This document shows, piece by piece, positions 157-64,000 of a stretch of 64,000 bases of DNA. The stretch's first letter is position 1; every line of letters begins with the position of its first letter. The notes beneath the pieces were generated by a model. The model saw only the letters and a list, made by a program, of their open reading frames with translations, did no database searches and had not been told where the DNA came from. Position numbers and translations under genes: made by a program. This stretch comes from Escherichia coli (GTDB lineage Bacteria > Pseudomonadota > Gammaproteobacteria > Enterobacterales > Enterobacteriaceae). The stretch is taken from assembly GCF_002854065.1 (NCBI RefSeq), contig NZ_CP024147.1; one strand, given 5' to 3'.

Positions 157-1740
<1,584 letters not shown>

Positions 1741-3728: not shown

Positions 3729-3731
3729 AAA

Positions 3732-3886: not shown

Positions 3887-3914
3887 ATATTACTTTCTGA
3901 GACTTATAAGTCAA
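3887..3914 (-). promoter_or_regulatory. Putative sigma70 promoter of the serV-arg tRNA operon (-35 TTGACT, 16-bp spacer, -10 TAATAT, GC-rich discriminator)
   Basis: Motifs read on the minus strand about 55 nt upstream of the serV 5' end. Confidence 0.55.
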
Positions 3915-4140
3915 ACAATTTTTCCCACACTTTTATCGTTTGCACACTTCACGCTCAATTAGTCTGTAAAAACGTCAAAAAGAGTGTTTTATCAACAGAA
4001 AAAACGGAAGTCTGACAGATAGCAGTAATGTAAAAAAATGGAGACTTAAGTTGAATGAACGGGAGTAAAGCGAAAAGACTATAGAGTGAAGGAGAAATTT
4101 TGAGGGTGCGTCTCACCGATAAAGATGAGACGCGGAAAGA

Positions 4141-4326
4141 TTAGTAACTGGACTGCTGGGATTTTTCAGCCTGGATACGCTGGTAGATCTCTTCACGGTG
4201 AACAGAAACTTCCTTCGGGGCATTTACGCCAATACGTACCTGGTTGCCCTTTACCCCTAAAACTGTCACGGTGACCTCATCCCCAATCATGAGGGTCTCA
4301 CCAACTCGACGAGTCAGAATCAGCAT
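4141..4326 (-). CDS. csrA: Carbon storage regulator CsrA
   Basis: 61-aa [51 protein letters not shown]. Confidence 0.98.
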
Positions 4327-4560
4327 TCTTTGCTCCTTGAAAGATTAAAAGAGTCGGGTCTCTCTGTATCCCGGCATTATCCATCATATAACGCCAAAAA
4401 GTAAGCAATGACAAACACATTACATCTAAGCAGTCATGGCATTACATTCTGTTAAACCTAAGTTTAGCCGATATACACAACTTCAACCTGACTTTATCGT
4501 TGTCGATAGCGTTAATGCGAATGCCGTGAAGCGAGTCCACGGCATTGCCTGACGCTTATA

Positions 4561-7191
4561 TTATTGCAATTTCGCGCTGACCCAGCCTTTCACACTGGCT
4601 AACGCTGCAGGTAAGGCCGCAGCATCCGTACCACCGGCTTGCGCCATGTCAGGACGTCCACCCCCCTTGCCGCCCACCTGCTGAGCGACCATACCAATCA
4701 GTTCCCCTGCTTTCACACGATCTGTGACGTCCTTAGATACGCCTGCAATCAGAGAAACCTTACCTTCGGCTACCGTTGCCAGCACGATAATTGTCGACCC
4801 CAGCTGATTTTTTAAATCGTCAACCATGGTACGCAACATTTTCGGCTCAACACCGCTAAGCTCGCTAACCAACAGCTTAACACCATTAACATCAATTGCC
4901 TTACTGGAAAGATTTGCGCTCTCCTGTGCGGCAGCTTGTTCTTTAAGCTGTTGTAGTTCTTTTTCTAACTGACGCGTACGTTCCAGTACTGAGCGCACTT
5001 TATCAGCCAGATTATTGCTATCGCCTTTCAGCAGATGCGCGACTTCGCTTAAGCGATCGCTGTCTGCATGAACGGTGGCGATAGCGCCTTCTCCGGTTAC
5101 CGCTTCGATACGACGAACGCCTGCAGCAGTACCCGATTCAGAGATGATGCGGAACAGACCAATATCACCAGTGCGGCTGGCGTGAGTACCGCCACACAGC
5201 TCGGTGGAGAAATCGCCCATGCTCAGCACGCGTACGCGCTCATCATACTTCTCGCCGAACAGCGCCATCGCACCTTTCGCTTTCGCCGCTTCGAGATCCA
5301 TGATGTTGGTTTCGATCGGCAAATTGCGACGAATCTGTGCGTTCACCAGGTCTTCGACCGCACGAATCTCTTCTGGTTTCATCGCTTCGTTGTGTGAGAA
5401 GTCGAAGCGCAGCACCTTGTCGTTAACCAGTGAACCTTTCTGCGATACATGAGTACCCAGAACCTGGCGCAGCGCAGCGTGCATCAGGTGCGTTGCGGAG
5501 TGATTCAGACGAATACGGGCGCGACGAGCCTCATCAACATCAGCCTGCACCGCGTCGCCCACTTTCAGAGAACCCGCAGCAAGTTTACCGATGTGACCAA
5601 TCGCCTGGCCGTATTTCTGCGTATCTTCCACCGCAAAGGAGAAGTTAGCGCCTTTCAGTTCGCCTTTATCGCCAACCTGACCGCCGGATTCCGCATAGAA
5701 TGGCGTTTGATCCAGCACGACCACAGCTTCCTGGCCTGCATTGATGGCATCAACCGCTTTACCATCAACAAACAGCGCAGTCACTTTGCCGTTCAGTTCC
5801 AGATGGTCATAACCTTTAAATTCAGATGCACTGTCAACACGGATCATTGCGTTGTAATCGGCACCAAAGCCGCTGGCTTCGCGCGCGCGACGACGCTGCT
5901 CTTCCATTGCAGCTTCAAAACCAGCTTCGTCAACTTTGATGTTGCGCTCACGACAAACATCAGCCGTCAGGTCAACCGGGAAGCCATAGGTGTCGTACAG
6001 ACGGAAAGCAGTTTCACCATCCAGCGTATCACCAGAAAGTTTTGCCAGCTCTTCATCCAGCAACGCCAGACCGCGCTCCAGAGTACGAGCAAACTGCTCT
6101 TCTTCAGTCTTCAGCACCTGCTCAACCTGCGCCTGCTGGCGTTTCAGGTCTTCACCCGCAGAGCCCATAACGTCGATCAGCGGACCAACCAGTTTGTAGA
6201 AGAAGGTTTCTTTCGCGCCGAGCATATTACCGTGACGCACTGCGCGACGAATGATACGACGCAGTACATAACCACGGTTTTCATTGGACGGCATTACGCC
6301 ATCCGCGATCAGGAACGCACAAGAACGAATGTGGTCAGCGATTACGCGCAGCGATTTATTGCTCAGATCGGTTGCGCCAGTAACTTTCGCTACCGCCTGG
6401 ATCAACGTGCGGAACAGGTCGATGTCATAGTTAGAGTTAACGTGTTGCAGCACCGCAGCAATACGCTCCAGACCCATACCGGTATCTACAGACGGCTTCG
6501 GCAGCGGTTCCATCGTGCCATCGGCCTGGCGGTTGAACTGCATGAAGACGATGTTCCAGATCTCAATGTAGCGGTCGCCGTCTTCTTCCGGACTTCCCGG
6601 AGGGCCACCCCAAATGTGGTCGCCGTGATCGTAGAAGATTTCGGTGCACGGGCCGCACGGACCAGTGTCACCCATCTGCCAGAAGTTGTCAGATGCGTAT
6701 GGCGCACCTTTGTTATCGCCGATGCGAATAATACGTTCGCGCGGGATCCCGACTTCTTTTTCCCAGATTTCGTAGGCTTCGTCGTCGCTTTCATAGACGG
6801 TAACCCACAGACGCTCTTTCGGCAGGGCAAACCATTTTTCGCTGGTCAGCAGTTCCCATGCAAACTGAATGGCATCGTGTTTGAAATAGTCGCCGAAGCT
6901 GAAGTTGCCCAGCATTTCGAAGAAGGTATGGTGACGCGCGGTGTAACCGACGTTTTCCAGGTCGTTGTGTTTACCACCCGCACGCACGCAGCGTTGGGAA
7001 GTGGTAGCGCGGGAATAATTACGCTTGTCGAGCCCAAGGAACACATCCTTGAACTGGTTCATCCCGGCGTTGGTAAACAACAAAGTTGGGTCGTTATGGG
7101 GTACCAGGGAGCTGCTGGCAACTACCTGATGTCCCTTACTATGGAAAAAGTCGAGAAACGCCTGACGGATCTCAGCGGTGCTCTTGCTCAT
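4561..7191 (-). CDS. alaS: Alanine--tRNA ligase
   Basis: 876-aa ORF, N-terminus [24 protein letters not shown]. Confidence 0.97.
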
Positions 7192-29420: not shown

Positions 29421-30184
29421 CGGATACGCGCCTCTTCAACAACATGATTCAGATGGCTGACAATCTCGTTCAGACGCGGATCGTTTTCCGCTTCCAGCCA
29501 GCGTGCAACCTGTTCTTCGCCCTGCCCTAACTGTGTCAGGAAGTCATCGGCAATCTGACGACCGTAACGATAACCCGCCAGTCGACGTGCTTCGCGATCC
29601 ACTTTCACACGCAGCGGCTGCACCATATCGCCATGCAGAATTTCTGCCGGTTGTTCATCCTGCTCACCCGGGCCACGGGCGTGAATTTTCTGCTCCAGCA
29701 GGCCGAGCGCCATTGCAAAGCCGTACAGCGTGGCCGCTGGCGTTGGCGGGCAGCCAGGGATATAAACATCCACCGGGACGATTTTATCCGTACCGCCCCA
29801 CACGCAGTAGAGATCGTGGAAGATCCCGCCACTGTTACCGCAGGCACCGTAGGAGATACAGATTTTCGGGTCCGGCGCGGACTGCCACGCACGCAGCGCA
29901 GGGGATCGCATTGCACGGGTGACCGCGCCGGTAAACAGTAAAATATCCGCATGACGCGGTGAAGGAACGACTTTAATGCCGAAGCGTTCTGCATCAAACA
30001 GCGGCGAAAGCGTGGCGAAAATTTCGATTTCGCAGCCGTTGCAGCCGCCGCAGTCCACGCGGTAAACGTAGGCAGAGCGTTTGATTTTTTTCAGTAACGA
30101 CGCCTTCATACTGGCGATGGATTCATCCACCGTCATCGGGACCGGAATGCCGTTGGCGTCACGGGGGCCTAATAAATTGCTCAT
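29417..30184 (-). CDS. hycG: Hydrogenase 3 small subunit (NuoB-like)
   Basis: 255-aa ORF with CxxC Fe-S motifs. Confidence 0.93.
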
Positions 30185-30726
30185 CAGATGGCCTCTTTCA
30201 TATGGCGAGTCAGTTCAATACGGTCGGACGGCACTAGGCATTTCTGGCGCTTACATTCCGGGCAAGTCTCAAAGCTTTCGCGGTGGTTTTCCGCGCGGCT
30301 GTCGCCGTTGTGCTTAAGCAGCGCAATGGCGTAGTCGATCTCTTTCTGAACGGCGAAAGGACGATTGCAGACGCGGCAGTTACACAGCGCGAAGCGGGAC
30401 TGTTGCAGGAAGTCTTCTTTCTTCCACACCGCCAGTTCGTACTCTTGCGACAGTTTGATCGCCGCCGTCGGGCAAACTTCTTCGCAGCGTCCACAGAAGA
30501 TGCAACGCCCGAGATTAAACTCCCACGCAAGCTCTCCTGTGGCGAGATCAGTTTCAACCGTTAAGGCGTTTGACGGGCAGGCATTGACGCAGGCCGCGCA
30601 GCCGATGCACTGCTGCGGGTTCTGCTCTGGCTTACCACGGAAGTTTTTATCAACCGCAATCGGCTCCAGCGGATAAGACGAGGTCGCCGTGCCGGTTTTG
30701 ATGACTTTTTTGATAAAGGTAAACAT
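30184..30726 (-). CDS. hycF: Formate hydrogenlyase 4Fe-4S subunit
   Basis: 180-aa ORF with two CxxCxxCxxxCP motifs. Confidence 0.93.
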
Positions 30727-37847: not shown

Positions 37848-38110
37848 GCGTTCCCGGCCAGATCCGCACCATTGACGGTAACCAGGCGAAAGTCGACGTC
37901 TGCGGCATTCAGCGCGATGTCGATTTAACGTTAGTCGGCAGCTGCGATGAAAACGGTCAGCCGCGCGTGGGCCAGTGGGTACTGGTTCACGTTGGCTTTG
38001 CCATGAGCGTAATTAATGAAGCCGAAGCACGCGACACTCTCGACGCCTTACAAAACATGTTTGACGTTGAGCCGGATGTCGGCGCGCTGTTGTATGGCGA
38101 GGAAAAATAA
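37838..38110 (+). CDS. hypC: Hydrogenase maturation chaperone HypC
   Basis: 90-aa ORF starting [10 protein letters not shown] (conserved Cys2). Confidence 0.93.
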
Positions 38111-39231
38111 TGCGTTTTGTTGATGAATATCGCGCGCCGGAACAGGTGATGCAGTTAATTGAGCATCTGCGCGAACGTGCTTCACATCTCTCTTACACAG
38201 CCGAACGCCCTCTGCGGATTATGGAAGTGTGTGGCGGTCATACTCACGCTATCTTTAAATTCGGCCTCGACCAGTTACTGCCGGAAAACGTTGAGTTTAT
38301 CCACGGTCCGGGTTGCCCGGTGTGCGTACTGCCGATGGGTAGAATCGACACCTGCGTGGAGATTGCCAGCCATCCGGAAGTCATCTTCTGTACCTTTGGC
38401 GACGCCATGCGCGTACCAGGGAAACAGGGATCGCTGTTGCAGGCAAAAGCACGCGGTGCCGATGTGCGTATCGTTTACTCGCCGATGGATGCGTTGAAAC
38501 TGGCGCAGGAGAATCCAACCCGCAAAGTGGTGTTCTTCGGCTTAGGTTTTGAAACCACCATGCCGACCACCGCTATCACTCTGCAACAGGCGAAAGCGCG
38601 TGATGTGCAGAATTTTTACTTCTTCTGCCAGCACATTACGCTTATCCCGACGCTTCGCAGTTTGCTGGAACAGCCGAATAACGGTATCGACGCGTTCCTC
38701 GCGCCGGGGCACGTTAGTATGGTTATCGGCACTGATGCCTATAATTTTATCGCCAGCGATTTTCATCGTCCGCTGGTGGTCGCTGGTTTCGAACCCCTTG
38801 ATCTACTGCAAGGCGTGGTGATGCTGGTGGAGCAGAAAATAGCGGCCCACAGCAAGGTAGAGAATCAGTATCGTCGGGTGGTACCGGATGCCGGTAACCT
38901 GCTGGCGCAACAGGCGATTGCCGATGTGTTCTGTGTCAACGGCGACAGCGAATGGCGCGGCTTAGGCGTGATTGAATCTTCTGGCGTGCACCTGACGCCG
39001 GATTATCAACGATTCGATGCCGAAGCACATTTCCGCCCGGCACCGCAGCAGGTCTGCGATGACCCGCGCGCGCGTTGTGGTGAGGTATTAACGGGCAAAT
39101 GTAAGCCGCATCAATGCCCGCTGTTTGGTAACACCTGTAATCCTCAAACCGCATTTGGTGCACTGATGGTCTCCTCCGAAGGAGCGTGCGCCGCGTGGTA
39201 TCAGTATCGTCAGCAGGAGAGTGAAGCGTGA
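38110..39231 (+). CDS. hypD: Hydrogenase maturation factor HypD
   Basis: 373-aa ORF with [14 protein letters not shown]-terminus and CGxH / CPVC motifs. Confidence 0.95.
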   Translation: MRFVDEYRAPEQVMQLIEHLRERASHLSYTAERPLRIMEVCGGHTHAIFKFGLDQLLPENVEFIHGPGCPVCVLPMGRIDTCVEIASHPEVIFCTFGDAMRVPGKQGSLLQAKARGADVRIVYSPMDALKLAQENPTRKVVFFGLGFETTMPTTAITLQQAKARDVQNFYFFCQHITLIPTLRSLLEQPNNGIDAFLAPGHVSMVIGTDAYNFIASDFHRPLVVAGFEPLDLLQGVVMLVEQKIAAHSKVENQYRRVVPDAGNLLAQQAIADVFCVNGDSEWRGLGVIESSGVHLTPDYQRFDAEAHFRPAPQQVCDDPRARCGEVLTGKCKPHQCPLFGNTCNPQTAFGALMVSSEGACAAWYQYRQQESEA

Positions 39232-40238
39232 ATAATATCCAACTCGCCCACGGCAGCGGCGGCCAGGCGATGCAGCAATTAATCAACAGCCTGTTTTTGG
39301 AAGCCTTTGCCAACCCGTGGCTGGCAGAGCAGGAAGATCAGGCACGTCTTGATCTGGCGCAACTGATAGCGGAAGGCGACCGTCTGGCGTTCTCCACCGA
39401 CAGTTACGTTATTGACCCGCTGTTCTTCCCTGGCGGTAATATCGGCAAGCTGGCGATTTGCGGCACAGCCAATGACGTTGCGGTCAGTGGTGCCATTCCG
39501 CGCTATCTCTCCTGTGGCTTTATCCTCGAAGAAGGATTGCCGATGGAGACACTGAAAGCCGTAGTGACCAGCATGGCAGAAACCGCCCGCACGGCAGGCA
39601 TTGCCATCGTTACTGGCGATACTAAAGTGGTGCAGCGCGGCGCGGCAGATAAACTGTTTATCAACACCGCGGGCATGGGCGCAATTCCGGTGAATATTCA
39701 CTGGGGCGCACAGACGCTAACCGCAGGCGATGTATTGCTGGTTAGCGGTACACTCGGCGACCACGGGGCGACTATCCTTAACCTGCGTGAGCAGCTGGGG
39801 CTGGATGGCGAACTGGTCAGCGACTGCGCGGTGCTGACGCCCCTTATTCAGACGCTGCGTGACATTCCCGGCGTGAAAGCGCTGCGTGATGCCACCCGTG
39901 GTGGTGTAAACGCGGTGGTTCATGAGTTCGCGGCAGCCTGCGGTTGCGGTATTGAAATTTCTGAATCAGCGCTGCCGGTTAAACCTGCCGTGCGCGGCGT
40001 TTGCGAATTGCTGGGACTGGACGCCCTGAACTTTGCCAACGAAGGCAAACTGGTGATCGCCGTTGAACGCAACGCGGCAGAGCAAGTGCTGGCAGCGTTA
40101 CATTCCCATCCACTGGGGAAAGACGCGGCGCTGATTGGTGAAGTGGTGGAACGTAAAGGTGTTCGTCTTGCCGGTCTGTATGGCGTGAAACGAACCCTCG
40201 ATTTACCACACGCCGAACCGCTTCCGCGTATATGCTAA
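39228..40238 (+). CDS. hypE: Carbamoyl dehydratase HypE
   Basis: 336-aa ORF ending in the conserved C-terminal ...PRIC. Confidence 0.95.
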   Translation: MNNIQLAHGSGGQAMQQLINSLFLEAFANPWLAEQEDQARLDLAQLIAEGDRLAFSTDSYVIDPLFFPGGNIGKLAICGTANDVAVSGAIPRYLSCGFILEEGLPMETLKAVVTSMAETARTAGIAIVTGDTKVVQRGAADKLFINTAGMGAIPVNIHWGAQTLTAGDVLLVSGTLGDHGATILNLREQLGLDGELVSDCAVLTPLIQTLRDIPGVKALRDATRGGVNAVVHEFAAACGCGIEISESALPVKPAVRGVCELLGLDALNFANEGKLVIAVERNAAEQVLAALHSHPLGKDAALIGEVVERKGVRLAGLYGVKRTLDLPHAEPLPRIC

Positions 40239-40311
40239 TAAAATTCTAAATCTCCTATAGTTAGTCAATGACCTTTTGCACCGCTTTGCGGTGCTTTCCT
40301 GGAAGAACAAA

Positions 40312-42390
40312 ATGTCATATACACCGATGAGTGATCTCGGACAGCAAGGGTTGTTCGACATCACTCGGACACTATTGCAGCAGCCCGATCTGGCCTCGCT
40401 GTGTGAGGCTCTTTCGCAACTGGTAAAGCGTTCTGCGCTCGCCGACAACGCGGCTATTGTGTTGTGGCAAGCGCAGACTCAACGTGCGTCTTATTACGCA
40501 TCGCGTGAAAAAGACACCCCCATTAAATATGAAGACGAAACTGTTCTGGCACACGGTCCGGTACGCAGCATTTTGTCGCGCCCTGATACGCTGCATTGCA
40601 GTTACGAAGAATTTTGTGAAACCTGGCCGCAGCTGGCCGCAGGTGGGCTATACCCAAAATTTGCTCACTATTGCCTGATGCCACTGGCGGCGGAAGGGCA
40701 TATTTTTGGTGGCTGTGAATTTATTCGTTATGACGATCGCCCCTGGAGCGAAAAAGAGTTCAATCGTCTGCAAACATTTACGCAGATCGTTTCTGTCGTC
40801 ACCGAACAAATCCAGAGTCGCGTCGTTAACAATGTCGACTATGAGTTGTTATGCCGGGAACGCGATAACTTCCGCATCCTGGTCGCCATCACCAACGCGG
40901 TGCTTTCCCGCCTGGATATGGACGAACTGGTCAGCGAAGTCGCCAAAGAAATCCATTACTATTTCGATATTGACGATATCAGTATCGTCTTACGCAGCCA
41001 CCGTAAAAACAAACTCAACATCTACTCCACTCACTATCTTGATAAACAGCATCCCGCCCACGAACAGAGCGAAGTCGATGAAGCCGGAACCCTCACCGAA
41101 CGCGTGTTCAAAAGTAAAGAGATGCTGCTGATTAATCTCCACGAGCGGGATGATTTAGCCCCCTATGAACGCATGTTGTTCGATACCTGGGGCAACCAGA
41201 TTCAAACCTTGTGCCTGTTACCGCTGATGTCTGGCGACACCATGCTGGGCGTGCTGAAACTGGCGCAATGTGAAGAGAAAGTGTTTACCACTACCAATCT
41301 GAATTTACTGCGCCAGATTGCCGAACGTGTGGCAATCGCTGTCGATAACGCCCTCGCCTATCAGGAAATCCATCGTCTGAAAGAACGGCTGGTTGATGAA
41401 AACCTCGCCCTGACCGAGCAGCTCAACAATGTTGATAGTGAATTTGGCGAGATTATTGGCCGCAGCGAAGCCATGTACAGCGTGCTTAAACAAGTTGAAA
41501 TGGTGGCGCAAAGTGACAGTACCGTGCTGATCCTCGGTGAAACTGGCACGGGTAAAGAGCTGATTGCCCGTGCTATCCATAATCTCAGTGGGCGTAATAA
41601 TCGCCGCATGGTCAAAATGAACTGCGCGGCGATGCCTGCCGGATTGCTGGAGAGCGATCTGTTTGGTCATGAACGTGGGGCTTTTACTGGTGCCAGCGTC
41701 CAGCGTATCGGTCGTTTTGAACTGGCGGATAAAAGCTCCCTGTTCCTCGACGAAGTGGGCGATATGCCACTGGAGTTACAGCCGAAGTTGCTGCGTGTAT
41801 TGCAGGAACAGGAGTTTGAACGCCTCGGCAGCAACAAAATCATTCAGACGGACGTGCGTCTAATCGCCGCGACTAACCGCGATCTGAAAAAAATGGTCGC
41901 CGACCGAGAGTTCCGTAGCGATCTCTATTACCGCCTGAACGTATTTCCGATCCACCTGCCGCCACTACGCGAGCGTCCGGAAGATATTCCGCTGCTGGCG
42001 AAAGCCTTTACCTTCAAAATTGCCCGTCGTCTGGGGCGCAATATCGACAGCATTCCTGCCGAGACGCTGCGCACCTTGAGCAACATGGAGTGGCCGGGTA
42101 ACGTACGCGAACTGGAAAACGTCATTGAGCGCGCGGTATTGCTAACACGCGGCAACGTGCTGCAGCTGTCATTGCCAGATATTGCTTTACCGGAGCCTGA
42201 AACGCCGCCTGCCGCAACGGTTGTCGCTCAGGAGGGCGAAGATGAATATCAGTTGATTGTTCGCGTGCTGAAAGAAACTAACGGCGTGGTTGCCGGGCCT
42301 AAAGGCGCTGCGCAACGTCTGGGGCTGAAACGCACGACCCTGCTGTCACGGATGAAGCGACTGGGAATTGATAAATCGGCATTGATTTAA
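40312..42390 (+). CDS. fhlA: Formate hydrogenlyase transcriptional activator FhlA (sigma54 enhancer-binding protein)
   Basis: ORF with GAF domains, AAA+ GETGTGKE and GAFTGA, C-terminal HTH; start set at MSYTPMSDLGQQGLF. Confidence 0.95.
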   Translation: MSYTPMSDLGQQGLFDITRTLLQQPDLASLCEALSQLVKRSALADNAAIVLWQAQTQRASYYASREKDTPIKYEDETVLAHGPVRSILSRPDTLHCSYEEFCETWPQLAAGGLYPKFAHYCLMPLAAEGHIFGGCEFIRYDDRPWSEKEFNRLQTFTQIVSVVTEQIQSRVVNNVDYELLCRERDNFRILVAITNAVLSRLDMDELVSEVAKEIHYYFDIDDISIVLRSHRKNKLNIYSTHYLDKQHPAHEQSEVDEAGTLTERVFKSKEMLLINLHERDDLAPYERMLFDTWGNQIQTLCLLPLMSGDTMLGVLKLAQCEEKVFTTTNLNLLRQIAERVAIAVDNALAYQEIHRLKERLVDENLALTEQLNNVDSEFGEIIGRSEAMYSVLKQVEMVAQSDSTVLILGETGTGKELIARAIHNLSGRNNRRMVKMNCAAMPAGLLESDLFGHERGAFTGASVQRIGRFELADKSSLFLDEVGDMPLELQPKLLRVLQEQEFERLGSNKIIQTDVRLIAATNRDLKKMVADREFRSDLYYRLNVFPIHLPPLRERPEDIPLLAKAFTFKIARRLGRNIDSIPAETLRTLSNMEWPGNVRELENVIERAVLLTRGNVLQLSLPDIALPEPETPPAATVVAQEGEDEYQLIVRVLKETNGVVAGPKGAAQRLGLKRTTLLSRMKRLGIDKSALI

Positions 42391-42434
42391 CAGATGTGGT
42401 TATACTCGATCAACATTCAATGAAAGGAGGCAGT

Positions 42435-42863
42435 ATGGCAGTTTCAGCAAGAAATCAATTAACCGGAACAGTTAGCGCAGTAGCAATGGGCGCGGTGAAT
42501 GACGAAGTAGAACTGACGCTGGCAGGTGGTGCAAAACTGGTGGCGATTGTTACACACAGCAGCCAACAGGCTCTGGGGCTGGCAAAAGGGAAAGAAGCGA
42601 TTGCCCTGATTAAAGCCCCGTGGGTAACGCTGGCCACGGAAGACTGTGGACTGAAATTCTCTGCTCGCAACCAGTTTGCTGGCAGCGTGTCGACAATCAC
42701 CGAAGGCGCAGTGAACGCCACTGTCCATATCAAAACGGATGCGGGTTTTGAAATTGTGGCAGTGGTAACAAATGAAAGTCAGGATGAAATGAAACTTACC
42801 ACTGGCTCACGCGTTATTGCGTTGATCAAAGCATCAGCAATCCTGATTGCTACCAAAGCGTAA
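42435..42863 (+). CDS. Standalone di-Mop (tandem TOBE) molbindin, predicted molybdate/tungstate-binding protein
   Basis: 142-aa ORF with strong SD AAAGGAGG 6 nt upstream; two ~70-aa repeats each starting SARNQ(L/F)(T/A)G(T/S)VS with the Mop/TOBE signature. Confidence 0.8.
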   Translation: MAVSARNQLTGTVSAVAMGAVNDEVELTLAGGAKLVAIVTHSSQQALGLAKGKEAIALIKAPWVTLATEDCGLKFSARNQFAGSVSTITEGAVNATVHIKTDAGFEIVAVVTNESQDEMKLTTGSRVIALIKASAILIATKA

Positions 42864-42874
42864 GCGCCTTATTT

Positions 42875-42897
42875 GCCGGAGAGTATGGCTCTCCGGC
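42875..42897. terminator. Bidirectional terminator hairpin between the molbindin gene and convergent ygbA
   Basis: GCCGGAGAGtatggCTCTCCGGC stem-loop with T-rich flank. Confidence 0.7.
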
Positions 42898-42901
42898 AGA
42901 T

Positions 42902-43246
42902 TTATTTCTTTGGACGATATTTTTCTGGCAACTCCGGCACCGGACGCTTGTCATCGATGAGATGACGCACGGTTAAGATCGGATGACGCCACAGCATTCT
43001 CGGCCCGGCCCAACGCATAATCTGTTTCATCTCTTCACGCTTTGCAGGCTGGTAACAGTGCACCGGACACTGCTTACAGGCTGGCTTCTCTTCGCCGAAC
43101 ACACATTTATCCAGCCGCTTTTGCGCGTAAACAAACAACGCCTCGTAATGCTCCGGCTCCGCTGACGCCTGCGGGCATTTCGCTTGATAAAGATCGATCA
43201 TTTTTTTAATCGTCAGTTTTTCACGAGAGATACGCTTGCCGGACAT
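42902..43246 (-). CDS. ygbA: YgbA-family protein (NsrR-regulon, nitrosative stress induced)
   Basis: 114-aa ORF MSGKRISREKLTIKKMIDLYQAKCPQ with CxxC...CxxC cysteines. Confidence 0.85.
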   Translation of the reverse strand: MSGKRISREKLTIKKMIDLYQAKCPQASAEPEHYEALFVYAQKRLDKCVFGEEKPACKQCPVHCYQPAKREEMKQIMRWAGPRMLWRHPILTVRHLIDDKRPVPELPEKYRPKK

Positions 43247-43261
43247 ACTGCCTCCACCTCA

Positions 43262-43294
43262 TTAAGATGCATTTATATTACAACTTAATCTTAA
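43262..43294. promoter_or_regulatory. Putative NsrR operator in the ygbA promoter region
   Basis: TTAAGATGCATTTatattacaacttAATCTTAA: AAGATGCATTT matches the NsrR half-site as I recall it; outer arms are inverted repeats. Confidence 0.5.
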
Positions 43295-43532
43295 AGGGCA
43301 CTATGACTCTAAAGAAGAAGGGTTAGCCAACCGATACAATTTTGCGTACTTGCTTCATAAGCATCACGCAAAAGCTGCAAAACAGCATCTTTCCCGGAAC
43401 CAGCATCAAGAACTCGCCGTTCGCTTCTTCCCCTGAAATGATTAACTCCGGTATCATGTGCGCCTTATGTGATTACAACGAAAATAAAAACCATCACACC
43501 CCATTTAATATCAGGGAACCGGACATAACCCC

Positions 43533-46094
43533 ATGAGTGCAATAGAAAATTTCGACGCCCATACGCCCATGATGCAGCAGTATCTCAAGCTGAAAGCCCA
43601 GCATCCCGAGATCCTGCTGTTTTACCGGATGGGTGATTTTTATGAACTGTTTTATGACGACGCAAAACGCGCGTCGCAACTGCTGGATATTTCACTGACC
43701 AAACGCGGTGCTTCGGCGGGAGAGCCGATCCCGATGGCGGGGATTCCCTACCATGCGGTGGAAAACTACCTCGCCAAACTGGTGAATCAGGGCGAGTCCG
43801 TTGCCATCTGCGAACAAATTGGCGATCCGGCGACCAGCAAAGGTCCGGTTGAGCGCAAAGTTGTGCGTATCGTTACGCCAGGCACCATCAGCGATGAAGC
43901 CCTGTTGCAGGAGCGTCAGGACAACCTGCTGGCGGCTATCTGGCAGGACAGCAAAGGTTTCGGCTACGCGACGCTGGATATCAGCTCCGGGCGTTTTCGC
44001 CTGAGCGAACCGGCTGACCGGGAAACGATGGCGGCAGAACTGCAACGCACTAATCCTGCGGAATTGCTGTATGCAGAAGATTTTGCTGAAATGTCGTTAA
44101 TTGAAGGCCGTCGCGGCCTGCGCCGTCGCCCGCTGTGGGAGTTTGAAATCGACACCGCGCGCCAGCAGTTGAATCTGCAATTTGGGACCCGCGATCTGGT
44201 CGGTTTTGGCGTCGAGAACGCGCCGCGCGGACTTTGTGCTGCCGGTTGTCTGTTGCAGTATGCGAAAGATACCCAACGTACGACTCTGCCGCATATTCGT
44301 TCCATCACCATGGAACGTGAGCAGGACAGCATCATTATGGATGCCGCGACGCGTCGTAATCTGGAAATCACCCAGAACCTGGCGGGTGGTGCGGAAAATA
44401 CGCTGGCTTCTGTGCTCGACTGCACCGTCACGCCGATGGGCAGCCGTATGCTGAAACGCTGGCTGCATATGCCAGTGCGCGATACCCGCGTGTTGCTTGA
44501 GCGCCAGCAAACTATTGGCGCATTGCAGGATTTCACCGCCGAGTTACAGCCGGTACTGCGTCAGGTGGGCGATCTGGAACGTATTCTGGCGCGTCTGGCG
44601 TTGCGTACTGCTCGCCCGCGCGATCTGGCCCGTATGCGCCATGCTTTCCAGCAACTGCCGGAACTGCGCGCGCAGTTAGAAAATGTCGATAGTGCACCGG
44701 TACAGGCGCTGCGTGAGAAGATGGGCGAGTTTGCCGAACTGCGCGATCTGCTGGAGCGGGCAATCATCGACACACCACCAGTGCTGGTACGCGACGGTGG
44801 TGTTATCGCACCGGGCTATAACGAAGAGCTGGATGAGTGGCGGGCGCTGGCTGACGGCGCGACCGATTATCTGGAGCGTCTGGAAATCCGCGAGCGTGAA
44901 CGTACCGGCCTGGACACGCTGAAAGTCGGATTTAACGCGGTGCATGGTTATTACATTCAGATCAGCCGTGGACAAAGCCATCTGGCCCCCATCAACTACA
45001 TGCGTCGCCAGACGCTGAAAAATGCCGAGCGCTACATTATTCCAGAGCTAAAAGAGTACGAAGATAAAGTTCTCACCTCAAAAGGCAAAGCACTGGCACT
45101 GGAAAAACAGCTTTATGAAGAGCTGTTCGACCTGCTGTTGCCGCATCTGGAAGCGTTGCAACAGAGCGCAAGCGCGCTGGCAGAACTTGATGTGCTGGTT
45201 AACCTGGCGGAGCGGGCCTATACCCTGAACTACACCTGCCCGACTTTTATTGATAAACCGGGTATTCGCATCACCGAAGGCCGCCATCCGGTGGTTGAAC
45301 AGGTGCTGAATGAGCCGTTTATCGCCAACCCGCTGAACCTGTCGCCACAGCGTCGCATGTTGATCATTACCGGTCCGAATATGGGCGGTAAAAGTACCTA
45401 TATGCGCCAGACCGCACTGATTGCGCTGATGGCCTACATCGGCAGCTATGTACCGGCACAAAAAGTTGAGATTGGACCTATCGATCGCATCTTTACCCGC
45501 GTAGGGGCAGCGGATGATCTGGCATCCGGGCGTTCAACCTTTATGGTGGAAATGACCGAAACCGCCAATATTTTACATAACGCCACCGAATACAGTCTGG
45601 TGTTAATGGATGAGATCGGGCGTGGAACGTCCACTTACGATGGTCTGTCACTGGCATGGGCGTGCGCGGAAAATCTGGCGAATAAGATTAAGGCATTGAC
45701 GCTGTTTGCTACCCACTATTTCGAGCTGACCCAGTTACCGGAGAAAATGGAAGGCGTCGCCAACGTGCATCTCGATGCACTGGAGCACGGCGACACCATT
45801 GCCTTTATGCATAGCGTGCAGGATGGCGCGGCGAGCAAAAGCTACGGCCTGGCGGTTGCAGCTCTGGCGGGCGTGCCAAAAGAGGTGATTAAGCGCGCAC
45901 GGCAAAAACTGCGTGAGCTGGAAAGTATTTCGCCGAACGCCGCCGCTACACAAGTGGATGGTACGCAAATGTCTTTGCTGTCAGTACCGGAAGAAACCTC
46001 GCCAGCGGTCGAAGCTCTGGAAAATCTCGACCCGGATTCACTAACTCCGCGTCAGGCGCTGGAATGGATTTATCGCTTGAAGAGTCTGGTGTAA
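43533..46094 (+). CDS. mutS: DNA mismatch repair protein MutS
   Basis: 853-aa [43 protein letters not shown] with Walker [10 protein letters not shown]. Confidence 0.98.
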
Positions 46095-46100
46095 TAACAA

Positions 46101-46135
46101 TTCCCGATAGAAAAATACTATCGGGAATATTATCT
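46101..46135 (+). terminator. mutS rho-independent terminator
   Basis: TTCCCGATAGaaaaatacCTATCGGGAA hairpin followed by a T-rich tract. Confidence 0.7.
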
Positions 46136-46199
46136 ACAGCTGACGAATCAAATAAAAATACCCTGTATAATAGGAAAGTTTATTTTACAGGGTAAAACC

Positions 46200-46856
46200 A
46201 TGCCATCTACACGCTATCAAAAAATCAATGCCCATCACTATCGCCATATATGGGTCGTTGGTGATATTCATGGTGAATATCAGTTATTACAATCCCGCTT
46301 ACATCAACTCTCTTTTTTCCCCGAAACCGACTTACTTATTTCTGTCGGCGATAATATTGATCGTGGGCCGGAGAGTCTTGACGTCCTGCGCCTGCTAAAC
46401 CAGCCCTGGTTTATCTCCGTTAAAGGCAACCACGAAGCAATGGCGCTGGATGCGTTCGCGACCGGCGATGGCAATATGTGGCTTGCCAGCGGTGGTGACT
46501 GGTTCTTTGAGTTAAATGATATGGAACAAAAAGAAGCTATAGGTCTATTGCTGAAATTTCATCAACTTCCACATATTATTGAAATTACCAACGACATTAT
46601 AAAATATGTCATCGCACATGCGGATTATCCGGGCAATGAATATCTCTTTGGCGGACAAATAGCGGAGAGCGAATTACTTTGGCCTGTTGATCGTGTGCAG
46701 AAATCTCTTAATGGCGAGTTACAACAAATAAACGGCGCTGATTATTTTATATTTGGACATATGATGCTTGATAACATTCAGACGTTCGCTAACCAGATTT
46801 ATATTGATACCGGATCGCCGAAAAGCGGGCGGCTGTCATTTTATAAAATAAAGTAG
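46200..46856 (+). CDS. pphB: Serine/threonine protein phosphatase 2 (calcineurin-like)
   Basis: 218-aa ORF with GDIHG and GNHE metallophosphatase motifs. Confidence 0.93.
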   Translation: MPSTRYQKINAHHYRHIWVVGDIHGEYQLLQSRLHQLSFFPETDLLISVGDNIDRGPESLDVLRLLNQPWFISVKGNHEAMALDAFATGDGNMWLASGGDWFFELNDMEQKEAIGLLLKFHQLPHIIEITNDIIKYVIAHADYPGNEYLFGGQIAESELLWPVDRVQKSLNGELQQINGADYFIFGHMMLDNIQTFANQIYIDTGSPKSGRLSFYKIK

Positions 46857-46857
46857 T

Positions 46858-46883
46858 CTCATGCTTCTTCTGTGAAGCATGAG
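46858..46883. terminator. Bidirectional terminator hairpin between convergent pphB and ygbI
   Basis: CTCATGCTTCttctgtGAAGCATGAG perfect stem-loop. Confidence 0.65.
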
Positions 46884-46906
46884 TAACCCGGTGTTATTGC
46901 AGGCCA

Positions 46907-47704
46907 TTATTCATTTTTCGCTACCAGCAAAGAGAGATCCTGCTTCGCCAGCGCGCGACTGGCACTCTCCGGCAAACCGTCGTCTGTAATAATCTGATCA
47001 AACTCGCTTAATGGTAACGCCAGCCATGTCGCCACCTGACCATATTTCGTCGCATCACAGACCAAAACTCGCTGGCGGCTGGCACTGGCAATCGCCCGTT
47101 TCACCGTGACTTTATCTTCCGCTGGCGTAGAAATCCCCCGCAAACTCCATGACGATGCAGAAATAAAAGCCTGATCAATCATCAGGCTGCGCAGCATGGT
47201 CGCAGCGGCTTCCCCGACACAGGAACGGTTTTCCCGACACACTGCACCGCCAGTGTGAATAATTGTGCAATTACTGTTGTCGAGCAAGTAGTCCGCAATA
47301 ACGAAATCGTTTGTGACCACAGTCAGTGACTCCATGTGAATCAGATGCTGTGCTATCGCTAACGTGGTCGTTCCCGCATCCAGATAGATACAACTTCCCG
47401 GCTGAACAAGACTTGCCGCCAGCTTGCCAATAGCCGCTTTTTGCGTCATTGCCAGCGCAGTTTTTACCTGATGAGAAGGTTCATGCGCCACGCGTCCCGG
47501 AGACTGGACGCCTCCGGATACCAGCACAACGGCTCCCTGCTGCTCCAGTTTTTGTAAATCCCGACGAATGGTCATATGTGACACATTCATTCTGTCCGTT
47601 AGTTCAGCAATACTGACAATGCCTTTTTCAGCTACCATCTCAAGGATGATTTGGCGACGCTCTACGGGTATCAACTTTTGCTCCTTCCTTTGTCCTGCTG
47701 ACAT
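46907..47704 (-). CDS. ygbI: DeoR-family transcriptional regulator
   Basis: ORF with N-terminal HTH (MTIRRDLQKLEQQG) and DeoR sugar-binding domain; start codon not resolved. Confidence 0.85.
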   Translation of the reverse strand: MSAGQRKEQKLIPVERRQIILEMVAEKGIVSIAELTDRMNVSHMTIRRDLQKLEQQGAVVLVSGGVQSPGRVAHEPSHQVKTALAMTQKAAIGKLAASLVQPGSCIYLDAGTTTLAIAQHLIHMESLTVVTNDFVIADYLLDNSNCTIIHTGGAVCRENRSCVGEAAATMLRSLMIDQAFISASSWSLRGISTPAEDKVTVKRAIASASRQRVLVCDATKYGQVATWLALPLSEFDQIITDDGLPESASRALAKQDLSLLVAKNE

Positions 47705-47869
47705 TCTACGCTATTTGCCTGCGAAACGTGCGCGGCGCAACTAACGCTTAGTTCACATAAAATAACACACAATGTTAATTTTTGTGAATCAGCTCACCAT
47801 ATCGTTATCTTCCAGCGCTTATATTCACAATATCAAACAAAATATCACTTAAATTAACAATGAGAGCAG

Positions 47870-48777
47870 ATGAAAACGGGATCTAGTTTCATGTCGGTAT
47901 CGTTGGCTTAGGGTCAATGGGAATGGGAGCAGCACTGTCATGTGTCCGCGCAGGTCTTTCTACCTGGGGCGCAGACCTGAACAGCAATGCCTGCGCTACG
48001 TTGAAAGAGGCAGGTGCTTGCGGGGTTTCTGATAACGCCGCGACGTTTGCCGAAAAACTGGACGCTCTGCTGGTGCTGGTGGTCAATGCGGCCCAGGTTA
48101 AACAGGTGCTGTTTGGTGAAACAGGCGTTGCACAACATCTGAAACCCGGTACGGCAGTAATGGTTTCTTCCACTATCGCTAGTGCTGATGCGCAAGAAAT
48201 TGCTACCGCTCTGGCTGGATTCGATCTGGAAATGCTGGATGCGCCAGTTTCTGGTGGTGCAGTAAAAGCCGCTAACGGTGAAATGACTGTCATGGCCTCC
48301 GGTAGCGATATTGCCTTTGAACGACTGGCACCCGTGCTGGAAGCCGTTGCCGGAAAAGTTTATCGCATAGGTGCAGAACCGGGACTAGGTTCGACCGTAA
48401 AAATTATTCACCAGTTGTTAGCGGGCGTACATATTGCTGCCGGAGCCGAAGCGATGGCACTTGCAGCCCGTGCGGGGATCCCGCTGGATGTGATGTATGA
48501 CGTCGTGACCAATGCCGCCGGAAATTCCTGGATGTTCGAAAACCGGATGCGTCATGTGGTGGATGGCGATTACACCCCGCATTCAGCCGTCGATATTTTT
48601 GTTAAGGATCTTGGTCTGGTTGCCGATACAGCCAAAGCCCTGCACTTCCCGCTGCCATTGGCCTCAACAGCATTGAATATGTTCACCAGCGCCAGTAACG
48701 CGGGTTACGGGAAAGAAGACGATAGCGCAGTTATCAAGATTTTCTCTGGCATCACTCTACCGGGAGCGAAATCATGA
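47870..48777 (+). pseudogene. ygbJ: 3-hydroxyisobutyrate dehydrogenase-family oxidoreductase with a -1 frameshift near codon 6
   Basis: ATG at 47870 gives MKTGSSFMSVSLA* in one frame; the Rossmann motif VGIVGLGSMGMG is encoded in another frame directly upstream of the track ORF (47917), preceded by in-frame TAG at 47884-47886. Confidence 0.75.
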
Positions 48778-50036
48778 TCAAGATTGGCGTTATCGCCGAT
48801 GATTTTACCGGCGCGACGGATATCGCCAGTTTTCTGGTGGAAAACGGTCTACCAACGGTACAAATTAACGGTGTTCCAACAGGTAAAATGCCGGAAGCAA
48901 TCGACGCACTGGTGATCAGCCTGAAAACGCGTTCCTGTCCGGTGGTTGAAGCCACACAGCAATCGCTGGCGGCTCTGAGCTGGTTGCAACAGCAAGGTTG
49001 CAAACAGATCTATTTCAAATACTGCTCTACTTTCGACAGTACGGCTAAAGGTAATATCGGCCCGGTTACCGATGCATTAATGGATGCTCTCGACACGCCG
49101 TTTACGGTCTTCTCTCCGGCCCTGCCGGTCAACGGACGTACGGTTTATCAGGGGTATTTGTTCGTAATGAATCAACTGCTGGCCGAATCCGGGATGCGCC
49201 ATCACCCGGTAAATCCCATGACCGACAGCTATCTTCCCCGTCTGGTTGAAGCGCAATCCACAGGGCGCTGCGGCGTCGTTTCGGCACATGTTTTCGAACA
49301 AGGTGTGGATGCCGTTCGTCAAGAGCTGGCTCGCTTACAGCAAGAGGGCTACCGCTACGCGGTGCTTGATGCGCTGACCGAACACCATCTGGAAATTCAG
49401 GGAGAAGCCTTGCGCGATGCCCCACTGGTAACGGGCGGTTCTGGTCTGGCGATTGGCCTGGCCCGGCAGTGGGCGCAAGAAAACGGTAACCAGGCTCGCA
49501 AAGCAGGGCATCCGCTCGCTGGGCGCGGCGTAGTGCTCTCCGGTTCATGCTCTCAAATGACCAACCGCCAGGTGGCACATTACCGTCAAATTGCACCAGC
49601 CCGTGAAGTTGATGTGGCACGCTGCCTCTCAATTGAAACTCTGGCCGCTTATGCACACGAACTGGCAGAGTGGGTTCTGGGCCAGGAAAGTGTACTTGCT
49701 CCACTGGTTTTTGCCACCGCCAGCACTGACGCATTGGCAGCAATTCAACAGCAATACGGTGCACAAAAAGCCAGTCAGGCAGTAGAAACACTGTTTTCTC
49801 AACTAGCGGCGCGGTTAGCAGCGGAAGGCGTGACACGCTTTATTGTCGCAGGCGGTGAGACCTCCGGCGTAGTCACACAGAGCCTGGGAATAAAAGGGTT
49901 TCATATTGGCCCAACCATTTCCCCCGGCGTGCCGTGGGTAAACGCACTGGATAAGCCTGTCTCACTCGCCCTTAAATCTGGCAACTTCGGTGATGAAGCC
50001 TTTTTTTCACGAGCCCAAAGAGAGTTTTTATCATGA
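48774..50036 (+). CDS. ygbK: Four-carbon acid sugar kinase family protein
   Basis: 420-aa ORF in operon position, overlaps ygbJ by 4 bp. Confidence 0.85.
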   Translation: MIKIGVIADDFTGATDIASFLVENGLPTVQINGVPTGKMPEAIDALVISLKTRSCPVVEATQQSLAALSWLQQQGCKQIYFKYCSTFDSTAKGNIGPVTDALMDALDTPFTVFSPALPVNGRTVYQGYLFVMNQLLAESGMRHHPVNPMTDSYLPRLVEAQSTGRCGVVSAHVFEQGVDAVRQELARLQQEGYRYAVLDALTEHHLEIQGEALRDAPLVTGGSGLAIGLARQWAQENGNQARKAGHPLAGRGVVLSGSCSQMTNRQVAHYRQIAPAREVDVARCLSIETLAAYAHELAEWVLGQESVLAPLVFATASTDALAAIQQQYGAQKASQAVETLFSQLAARLAAEGVTRFIVAGGETSGVVTQSLGIKGFHIGPTISPGVPWVNALDKPVSLALKSGNFGDEAFFSRAQREFLS

Positions 50037-50671
50037 GCGATTTCGCAAAAGTAGAGCAGTCTTTGCGAGAGGAGATGACGCGGATTGCCAGTTCATTCTT
50101 TCAGCGCGGCTATGCAACCGGTTCGGCTGGCAATCTGTCGCTGCTTTTACCTGACGGGAATTTACTGGCGACACCGACAGGTTCATGCCTGGGCAATCTC
50201 GAGCCGCAGCGGCTTTCCAAAGTCGCCGCGGATGGCGAATGGTTAAGTGGTGACAAACCCTCGAAAGAGGTGCTCTTTCATCTGGCGCTGTATCGCAACA
50301 ATCCGCGCTGTAAAGCGGTGGTGCATTTGCACAGCACATGGTCGACGGCGCTTTCCTGCCTGCAAGGGCTGGACAGCAGCAACGTTATTCGTCCGTTCAC
50401 ACCATACGTGGTGATGCGGATGGGAAATGTCCCGCTGGTGCCTTATTACCGACCGGGCGATAAACGCATCGCACAGGATCTGGCGGAACTGGCAGCAGAC
50501 AATCAGGCTTTTTTACTGGCAAATCATGGCCCAGTGGTTTGCGGTGAAAGCCTGCAAGAAGCCGCCAACAATATGGAAGAGCTGGAGGAAACGGCAAAGC
50601 TGATTTTTATTCTCGGTGACCGCCCGATCCGTTATCTGACCGCAGGTGAAATTGCGGAATTAAGGAATTAA
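50033..50671 (+). CDS. ygbL: Class II aldolase/adducin-family protein
   Basis: 212-aa ORF with class II aldolase fold signature (HxH region). Confidence 0.85.
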
Positions 50672-61835: not shown

Positions 61836-62147
61836 TTATCGATTGTTTTGCCCCGCAGACTGTGCGCGCTTCGACGCGTCAGGTACCAGACGATAAAAAG
61901 TTTCGCCCGGCCTGGTCATGCTGAGTTCATTACGCGCACGCTCTTCGAGCGCCTCCTGGCCGCCATTGAGATCGTCAATTTCGGCAAAAAGTTGATCGTT
62001 TCGCGCTTTAAGTTTCGCGTTTGTAGCTTGCTGTGCCGCCACATCATCATTGACGCGGGTATAGTCATGTATACCGTTCTTACCGAACCACAGCGAATAC
62101 TGTAGCCAGACCAGAATAGCCAGCAACAGCAGCGTTAGTTTACCCAT
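61836..62147 (-). CDS. ftsB: Cell division protein FtsB
   Basis: 103-aa [28 protein letters not shown] with TM segment and coiled coil. Confidence 0.95.
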
Positions 62148-62340
62148 CCTGCCCCCTGAAAAACGGCATCATCATCCCATGCATCCGAAGACGACTCTAC
62201 ATCCTCTGTTGGGGATACCGCGACAACGCGGGCAAATGTACCACATTTGTCCATTGTTACGTATACCCAGGGCGTGCAGAACATAATCTCATTATTAGTT
62301 ACGGTTTGAATTATGAACAGAGGAGACAAGAAAGTACAAA

Positions 62341-62664
62341 TTAGCCCAGTAGCCACATAAACAGTGCGCCAAACATAATGCCTACTGTCATCAGGGTGAA
62401 AACAATACTGTAGCGTAGCTTTCCGTCCATCAATGAATGCAGCGCAATCCCCACCACTACCGCGACAGGCATCAGTGCCAGAAAGAAAGGCCAGGTGTAG
62501 ATAAAGAAGAACAGCGTGTTAGAGCCATAAATCAACATCGGCATCGCCAGCGCAAATAACCAAGAGATAAAACCGACCACGGCACCAGGCAGTGACCATG
62601 TGGTTTCTTCATCCTCAGTAAGGCTGTCGTTATTTGTTAGTGTAATGTTATGGCTATTACGCAT
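62341..62664 (-). CDS. ygbE: DUF3561-type inner membrane protein
   Basis: 107-aa hydrophobic ORF in the expected position. Confidence 0.85.
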   Translation of the reverse strand: MRNSHNITLTNNDSLTEDEETTWSLPGAVVGFISWLFALAMPMLIYGSNTLFFFIYTWPFFLALMPVAVVVGIALHSLMDGKLRYSIVFTLMTVGIMFGALFMWLLG

Positions 62665-62713
62665 ATTTGATCCTGTTACTTTGACGAACCGGGCATGGAA
62701 ACCCGGTGGTGTC

Positions 62714-63319
62714 TCAGGATCTGATAATATCGTTCTGTCTCAACAGATCTAATAATTGCTGTACCAAATTTGTTACTAATTGTTCACCATTGAGATGAAT
62801 TTCTGCCGATTCAGGCGCTTCGTAAACGGAATCTATTCCCGTAAAGTTGCGCAGTTCACCGGCACGCGCTTTCTTATATAAGCCTTTTGGATCGCGGGCT
62901 TCGCAAATCGCCAGCGGCGTATCGACAAACACTTCGATAAAGCGCCCTTCTCCTACGCGTTCGCGAACCATCTGGCGTTCGGCGCGGTGTGGCGAGATAA
63001 ATGCAGTCAGCACCACCAGTCCGGCTTCAACCATCAAATTCGCCACTTCACCGACGCGACGGATATTCTCTTTACGATCGGCATCGCTAAAACCGAGATC
63101 GCTGCATAATCCGTGGCGAACATTGTCGCCATCCAGCAGATACGTACTGACGCCGAGTTTATGTAACGCCTCCTCCAGCGCCCCGGCGACCGTTGATTTA
63201 CCGGACCCGGAGAGGCCGGTAAACCACAACACTACACCACGATGACCGTGGTGTAGCTCGCGTTGTTGCACAGTGACCGGATGGCTATGCCAGACGACGT
63301 TTTCGTCATGCAGCGCCAT
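62714..63319 (-). CDS. cysC: Adenylyl-sulfate kinase
   Basis: 201-aa ORF with P-loop GLSGSGKST. Confidence 0.97.
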
Positions 63320-64000
63320 TATTTATCTCCCAGCAAATCGCGCGCGCCCCAGTGCGGAAAGTGGCGGCGAACCAGAGCATTCAATTCCAGTTCGAATGCA
63401 CTGAATTCAGATGGCGCAGCAGTTGCCTGGCTAACTGGCTCGTGCACCATACCGGCGCCCACGGTCACATTGCTCAGGCGATCGATAAAAATCAGCCCAC
63501 CGGTAACCGGGTTTTGCTGATAACGATCTAACACCAGTGGCTCGTCAAAAGTGAGATCCACCAGGCCGATGCCGTTCAGCGGCAGGTTTTCAACTTCGCG
63601 TTGGGTAAGGTTATTAATATCAACCTGATAACGAATGCCATCAACACGAGCACGCGTCTTCTTACCGGCAATTTTGATGTCATAACTCTGGCCCGGGGAA
63701 AGCGGCTGTTCCGCCATCCATACCACATCCACCGACGCGCTCTGCACAGCTGGTAACGCTTCGTCTGCCGCCAGCAGCAGATCGCCACGGCTGATGTCGA
63801 TCTCATCCGTCAGCACCAGGGTGATCGCTTCTCCGGCAAAGGCTTCTTCGCGATCACCATCAAAAGTCACGATCCGCGCGACGTTTGATTCCACACCAGA
63901 GGGCAGCACTTTTACACGTTGCCCGACTTCCACGCGACCGGATGCCAGCGTTCCGGCGTAGCCACGAAAATCGAGATTTGGGCGGTTAACGTACTGCACC
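63319..64000 (-). CDS. cysN: Sulfate adenylyltransferase subunit 1 (CysN), C-terminal portion only; 5' end lies beyond the window
   Basis: Partial ORF (226 aa visible) with EF-Tu-like beta-barrel domain sequence, stop overlapping the cysC start. Confidence 0.9.

Follow-up and report, generated by a model that had tools for sequence, protein, structure and literature searches.

Molbindins, a family that includes Mop, ModG and the sensor domain of ModE, are well described both structurally and biochemically. Among them, ModG of A. vinelandii is a cytoplasmic molybdate-binding protein built from two Mop domains, and it assembles into a trimer with eight inter-subunit sites of two kinds. The oxyanion contacts have been defined in Tub, where they are made by Ser4, Arg6, the backbone of Ala20-Val21-Asn22, Ser40, Lys60 and Ala61 (PMC11980592); literature cited by that paper, as relayed there, places A. 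vinelandii modG in the mod locus under the control of ModE. The operator consensus of E. coli ModE itself is ATCGNTATATA-N6-TATATANCGAT (PMC545781).

Here we describe a relative of ModG at a different kind of location, immediately downstream of the gene for the formate hydrogenlyase activator in E. coli. Within the window (the whole 64-kb stretch of DNA that was analysed), the ORF list and the sequence show a frame of 142 codons with an ATG start and a TAA stop, hereafter called mop (Table 1). The original prediction had taken this frame, with its strong Shine-Dalgarno sequence, to be a real gene, and a RefSeq coding sequence with the same coordinates (WP_000301062.1, "TOBE domain-containing protein") is annotated in E. 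coli ST2747 (NZ_CP007394.1), which is 100% identical to the window across the queried interval. The GGAG of the Shine-Dalgarno sequence is invariant across 12 homologous upstream regions. Directly upstream, fhlA ends with a TAA codon at 42388–42390, and its orthologues carry Pfam GAF and sigma-54 activator domains. The flanking genes are hypE, fhlA, ygbA and mutS, with the hyc and hyp operons upstream, in agreement with the predicted position beside the hyc/hyp/fhlA cluster.

Table 1. Features of the fhlA–ygbA interval, in positions of the window.
Feature	Position	Strand	Basis
fhlA, formate hydrogenlyase transcriptional activator	40312..42390	+	RefSeq CDS (ST2747 extract 1013-3091); ORF list
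fhlA–mop spacer, 44 nt, holding the -10-like box and the Shine-Dalgarno sequence	42391..42434	+	fold and sequence
TATACT, -10-like hexamer	42401..42406	+	upstream alignment across genera
Shine-Dalgarno sequence AAAGGAGG, 4 nt 5' of the ATG	42423..42430	+	sequence
ModG-type di-Mop molbindin gene (mop), 142 aa	42435..42863	+	ORF, RefSeq, profiles, predicted fold, purifying selection
Mop/TOBE domain 1, residues 4-66	42444..42632	+	Pfam; alignment with Tub 9beb and ModG; conservation
Mop/TOBE domain 2, residues 76-137	42660..42845	+	Pfam; alignment with Tub and ModG; conservation
Intrinsic terminator, stem-loop 42871-42901 followed by TTATTTCTTT	42871..42911	+	terminator scan; fold; orthologous loci
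ygbA (YgbA_NO family), convergent neighbour	42902..43246	-	ORF list; RefSeq; K-12 alignment
Segment absent from K-12-type E. coli, ~474 bp	42391..42864	.	MG1655 pairwise alignment; junction count

Several annotation details of the surrounding region deserve mention. At 40312–42390 and in all six RefSeq records compared, RefSeq/PGAP lists the formate hydrogenlyase activator gene under the symbol 'flhA' with 'FlhA' as its product name, which belongs to a flagellar export gene and looks like a systematic naming slip. The hycF gene at 30184–30726 (- strand) is an uninterrupted ORF of 180 aa in the window, and the ST2747 RefSeq record flags it as a 'frameshifted' pseudogene. Between ygbA and mutS, RefSeq annotates a hypothetical protein of 44 aa (WP_000611932.1; 43324–43458, - strand) that is also present in K-12. 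The mutS–rpoS interval, a known variable segment, here (46270–50279) contains hydroxyarylic acid decarboxylase B/C/D genes together with a MarR regulator, and the end of the window (61847–64000) holds the type I-E cas genes cas2e, cas1e, cas6e and cas5e.

At the protein level, the Pfam profile PF03459 (TOBE) matched twice, at residues 4–66 (1.6e-17) and 76–137 (6.2e-16), and no other Pfam domain was detected, neither a DNA-binding (HTH) domain nor any other effector domain. The NCBIfam model TIGR00638 'Mop' scored 142 bits against a cut-off of 55, so that the predicted standalone pair of tandem Mop/TOBE domains was confirmed. The ModE model NF007957 was matched only at its profile positions 124–261, with 88 bits against a cut-off of 369, and the ModC/WtpC equivalog models of NCBIfam, which reached 47–49 bits against cut-offs of 285–440, were matched only through their Mop part. 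Identity with the ModE regulator is thereby ruled out, as only the Mop part of NF007957 is matched, below its cut-off, and an HTH domain is missing.

The closest PDB sequence match was A. vinelandii ModG (1h9j, E 5e-33), aligned over its full length (ModG residues 4–143) and with 48–49% identity across the whole chain, followed by the di-Mop domain of E. coli ModE and then by the single-domain proteins Tub and MopII. In line with this, an AlphaFold2 model of the monomer (pLDDT 95.2) returned 1h9j, 1h9k and 1h9m as top Foldseek matches, with TM scores of 0.94–0.95 and rmsd values of 1.3–1.4 Å. Both domains align one-to-one with Tub, and every ligand position of Tub is kept in each of them, giving the predicted positions S4, R6, A20, V21, N22, T40, K60 and A61 in domain 1 and S76, R78, A92, V93, N94, T112, K132 and A133 in domain 2. 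Ser40 of Tub is replaced by Thr in both domains, a substitution also found in ModG and ModE. Across a 19-sequence alignment the predicted ligand positions show no or almost no variation, and the motifs SARN, GAVN, T-x-x-S and KA(P/S) are intact in both Mop domains.

With two Mop domains only, a ModG-like predicted fold and conserved ligand motifs, the 142-aa protein is, as judged from sequence and model, a ModG-type di-Mop molbindin and no ModE regulator. Like A. vinelandii ModG, it would be expected to form a trimer, with a total of six Mop domains, and to bind either molybdate or tungstate. The label 'modE' or 'molybdate transport regulatory protein', used in PMC7232297 and in some JGI annotations, is wrong because the gene product has no DNA-binding domain. 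The gene is an uncharacterised ModG-type member of a known family in enterobacteria, and no experimental work on the protein was found in the searchable full-text literature.

Comparison of alleles shows that the gene is alive. One and the same protein is encoded in ST2747, ST131 and ECNB21-M121, whose DNA differs by 12–15 substitutions, all of which are synonymous (15 synonymous and 0 non-synonymous differences between the gene in the window and that of ST131). Against E. fergusonii and two Salmonella copies, dN/dS is 0.03–0.06; for Raoultella, Pluralibacter and Pantoea, dN is 0.09–0.12 and synonymous sites are saturated, hence no ratio is given. The dN/dS value against E. albertii was discarded, since a 51-bp in-frame deletion shifts the ungapped comparison and makes it meaningless. 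By these substitution patterns, the gene is under strong purifying selection.

Two damaged alleles were encountered. One E. albertii allele (extracted locus 6001–6378) lacks 17 aa through its in-frame deletion, at approximately residues 51–67, with loss of K60 and A61, and is probably a crippled copy. In E. coli FDAARGOS_1285 (extracted locus 1501–3126), the TOBE gene is interrupted by IS1A after 138 nt and nlpD comes next, so that the segment from ygbA and mutS to rpoS has seemingly been deleted; this strain is likely to be mutS/rpoS-null.

Within E. coli, mop is found in 1889 of 5426 complete genomes (35%), always on the chromosome and in one copy, where carriers are those covering at least 80% of the gene (1889 of the 1892 genomes with any match). 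Named carriers include the B2 strains O25b:H4-ST131 and E2348/69, and IAI39 has also been reported as one (PMC7232297). In a further 3505 genomes, including MG1655, HS and O157:H7 TW14359, an uninterrupted junction of the K-12 type is present at an identity of at least 97.8%, so that one or the other allele is found in 5394 of the 5426 genomes. In K-12 MG1655, the terminator hairpin begins right behind the stop codon of fhlA and about 474 bp (42391 to ~42864) are missing; both annotation and alignment agree with the original prediction that K-12 runs straight from fhlA to ygbA. The indel region extends into the 3' end of ygbA, which explains why YgbA has 114 aa in the window and 117 aa in K-12. 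Sequence inspection and the MG1655 alignment revealed no repeats, integrase or insertion sequence at the borders of the segment.

The hairpins of the two alleles are themselves divergent. The K-12 type (GCCGGACAG...CTGTCCGGC; K-12 extract 1592–1650) and the carrier type (GCCGGAGAG...CTCTCCGGC; window 42865–42915) differ by compensatory stem changes, another loop and an indel of 8 nt, through which YgbA is 3 aa longer on the K-12 side; this divergence is far above that of the flanking genes. Simple microhomology-mediated deletion, judged from the two alleles now present, fails to account for the K-12 junction, given the compensatory changes and the 8-nt indel. Across 41735–43246, the 3' end of fhlA is closer to K-12 (98.5%) than to ST131 (96.3%), and ygbA is closer to ST131 (99.1%) than to K-12 (97.7%); on these identities, this part of the window is of mosaic ancestry.

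Outside E. coli, the hyp genes, fhlA and the TOBE gene follow one another in this order on one strand, with a spacer of 31–73 nt, in eight taxa (E. albertii, E. fergusonii, Raoultella, Pluralibacter, Kluyvera, Yokenella, an Enterobacter and [Enterobacter] lignolyticus), so that fhlA–mop adjacency is seen in 9 of the 11 taxa examined. What lies 3' of mop varies among them, from ygbA to sitABCD-like genes and others. In the four outgroups measured, the divergence of mop follows that of its neighbours: nucleotide identities to the window for hypE, fhlA, mop and ygbA are 89.0%, 89.6%, 93.1% and 94.2% in E. albertii, 76.7%, 76.9%, 74.1% and 75.0% in Raoultella, 77.6%, 75.5%, 73.2% and 76.8% in Pluralibacter, and 93.6%, 79.9%, 76.9% and 80.6% in E. 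fergusonii. This pattern of divergence indicates that mop has long resided at the fhlA locus. On the grounds of the eight-taxon synteny and the neighbour-matched divergence, we read the K-12 state as a deletion and not as an ancestral empty site. In E. fergusonii (extracted locus 2721–6812), fhlA, mop and ygbA are divergent as one block and hypE is not, which implies, from these identities, a recombination breakpoint between hypE and fhlA, with the block replaced in one lineage.

The gene can also move, as seen from copies elsewhere. Those of Salmonella enterica lie in two different islands, beside IS21 or IS66 fragments and fimbrial usher genes, and still carry the leader of ~45 nt seen in E. 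coli (GGCTATACT...AAAGGAGGCAGTATG); the Pantoea copy is located away from fhlA; and Klebsiella IncF plasmids carry mop homologues at 75–79% identity, in a context that provided no functional clue.

These data bear on two rival accounts of the gene. Its absence from K-12 and 65% of complete E. coli genomes, the homologues in IS-flanked Salmonella islands and on Klebsiella IncF plasmids, and the location in an interval that the original prediction correctly named as an insertion hotspot, documented as such for islands (PMC7232297), would fit a recently acquired, strain-specific accessory gene. However, the fhlA–mop order recurs in eight other taxa, mop matches its neighbours in nucleotide identity in all four outgroups measured, the segment borders are free of repeats, integrase and IS, and ST2747, ST131 and ECNB21-M121 share one protein sequence with synonymous divergence only, all of which makes such an acquisition very unlikely. 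The alignment to K-12 and to a pangenome that had been suggested has a divided outcome: the gene is indeed absent from K-12 and variable in E. coli, but the change is a loss and not a gain. That mop is instead a decaying remnant without function could be argued from its loss, at no obvious cost, in most E. coli, from the strain in which IS1 truncates it and from the E. albertii allele with the in-frame deletion, but is scarcely credible against a dN/dS of ~0–0.06, the coverage of at least 80% of its 429 bases in all but three of the 1892 matching genomes, and the invariance of its Shine-Dalgarno sequence and ligand motifs. We consider it likely that the whole of a third account holds, namely that mop encodes a functional ModG-type molbindin, that its place after fhlA is ancestral, and that a single old deletion of ~474 bp is the allele shared by K-12 and ~65% of complete E. 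coli genomes.

We also examined how mop might be transcribed. The hairpin that follows the gene has a 14-bp GC-rich stem with a 3-nt loop (dG -23.3 kcal/mol, z -4.93 versus shuffles), and all nine syntenic loci have a strong hairpin just 3' of the gene. It had been thought to be shared with ygbA; it does lie between the convergent mop and ygbA, but a T-run follows it on the + strand alone, which makes it look like the terminator of fhlA/mop and less clearly one of ygbA. By contrast with this strong terminator, no terminator-like structure is present in the 44-nt fhlA–mop spacer (fold z +0.78), and the predicted folds of the spacers at the nine syntenic loci, 31–73 nt long, are weak in most. 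The layout is that of a single hyp–fhlA unit, with genes on the same strand, a short spacer, no terminator between them and a terminator after them. Given the lack of a terminator in the spacer and the strong one after mop, co-transcription with fhlA is most likely, and mop would be the last cistron of an fhlA or hyp–fhlA transcript.

A plausible promoter of its own, claimed originally, was not recovered by a two-hexamer consensus scan, which found no sigma-70 promoter in 42100–43400. What is conserved is a -10-like box, TATACT here and TATAAC or TATAAA elsewhere, without a matching -35; across 12 sequences it is the sole conserved upstream island besides the Shine-Dalgarno sequence and ATG, and it also occurs in the Salmonella and Pantoea copies that are not beside fhlA. 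This box could possibly mark a weak promoter belonging to the gene itself. Two candidate elements were rejected: TTGATT (42382–42387) and TATACT (42401–42406) are 13 nt apart, too close for a sigma-70 pair, and a sigma-54 site in TGGTTATACTCGATCA, inspected by eye, lacks the -12 GC element. A ModE operator, which had been put forward as worth looking for upstream, did not emerge near mop, where the best local match was 12/20, no better than background, with 45 positions in the 64-kb window equal or better. No known RNA family was found in 38000–48000 at E <= 0.1. The original prediction is thus partly supported: with significant TOBE/Mop matches and K-12 lacking the gene at fhlA–ygbA, it correctly identified the protein and the lack of its gene in K-12, and was wrong about the direction of the change, strain specificity and the ModE site.

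From these observations, a working model of function can be proposed. By analogy with ModG, the protein would be a trimer with oxyanion sites between domains, contacted by the SARN, GAVN, T-x-x-S and KA(P/S) motifs. It would be made from the terminal cistron of the hyp–fhlA unit, perhaps with a contribution from a weak promoter of its own. Its genomic context suggests that it may buffer or store cytoplasmic molybdate, or sequester tungstate, while FdhH and formate hydrogenlyase (FHL) are being made. FdhH is a molybdoenzyme, and K-12 makes it in active form without mop, so that any such role is at most conditional. Moreover, as the Salmonella, Pantoea and Klebsiella-plasmid copies lie away from fhlA, the protein can do without FHL. 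A stricter version, in which the di-Mop protein is a genuine and conserved part of the FHL regulon of enterobacteria, co-transcribed with fhlA and gating or buffering molybdate or excluding tungstate for FdhH maturation, is one we entertain with considerable doubt. If it were true, transcription with fhlA would mean that mop is induced by formate and anaerobiosis, and the deletion allele of K-12 would explain why decades of FHL work missed the gene.

Other functions have to be weighed against this model. A regulatory molybdate sensor that modulates FhlA, ModE or Moco-synthesis proteins, and so tunes Mo-dependent hyc/fdhF expression, would account for the position, which in nine taxa is right behind the gene of the FHL activator; in E. 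coli the nearest paralogue by fold is indeed the ModE sensor domain, and A. vinelandii ModG has been called a homeostasis factor and not a pure store (PMC11980592). A DNA-binding or other effector domain is nevertheless absent, the ligand motifs are complete in both Mop domains, as they are in ModG but not in the second domain of ModE, and copies occur away from fhlA in other genera, so that we regard a sensor as improbable. We rate as highly improbable a tungstate-directed, 'TudG'-type protein that would sequester W to protect molybdoenzymes or supply tungsten: although Mop/Tub proteins bind both oxyanions, the ModG architecture is reported to be commoner among gut species predicted to use W than among those predicted to use Mo (PMC11980592) and tungstate-binding Tub has the very same ligand residues, sequence within the Mop/Tub family cannot separate W from Mo binding, E. 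coli has ModABC and Mo enzymes, no tungstate transporter gene is seen within the 64-kb window, and the closest relative, ModG, is a molybdate protein. Our preferred reading therefore continues to be a ModG-type molbindin retained after fhlA, and the absence from K-12 of the gene that ends the unit of the FHL activator points to a conditional part in supplying FdhH with molybdate, one that can be tested.

The interest of the locus lies in the choice of reference strain, as K-12, the standard for the physiology of formate hydrogenlyase and molybdenum, lacks an ancestral gene that is kept, at the end of the hyp–fhlA unit, in B2 and many other strains and in many other Enterobacteriaceae. The clean presence/absence polymorphism of two alleles makes isogenic tests easy. 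Its importance is modest, since the family is well understood, down to its fold and ligand chemistry, and thousands of genomes already carry an annotation of the gene; it was known before from RefSeq annotation and from a mention as 'modE' by Lerminiaux et al. 2020 (PMC7232297).

Among described systems, A. vinelandii ModG (1H9J/1H9K/1H9M) is the closest counterpart: it has the same length and architecture, with two Mop domains only, superimposes on the predicted fold with a TM score of 0.95 and an rmsd of 1.3 Å, and shares SARN, GAVN, T-x-x-S and KA(P/S) in both domains. The settings differ, however, as the E. coli gene stands after fhlA, outside the mod locus and without a ModE box, and E. 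coli, unlike A. vinelandii, is no nitrogen fixer. The di-Mop sensor domain of E. coli ModE (1O7L, 1H9R/1H9S, 1B9M) has the same tandem Mop fold (TM 0.88–0.90, 34–39% identity), and the SARNQ and KAPW motifs of its first domain recur in the 142-aa protein. ModE carries in addition an N-terminal winged-helix DNA-binding domain, which the 142-aa protein lacks, and the ligand motifs are gone from its second Mop domain (NADNQ, NADS), in contrast to the two complete sets kept here. ModC and WtpC are more remote: their C-terminal TOBE domain resembles one of the two domains weakly (TM 0.75 to 3D31), and they are ABC ATPases, whereas the 142-aa protein has no ATPase domain and is no transporter subunit. 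The single-domain molbindins, namely Mop of Clostridium pasteurianum (1GUG), that of Sporomusa ovata (1FR3) and the tungstate-binding Tub of Eubacterium limosum (9BEB), whose listed ligand positions are all kept here, are ~70 aa long, and each of the two domains aligns one-to-one with them at E values of 1e-9 to 1e-5. These proteins form hexamers of single domains, while the E. coli protein, like ModG, joins two such domains in a single chain.
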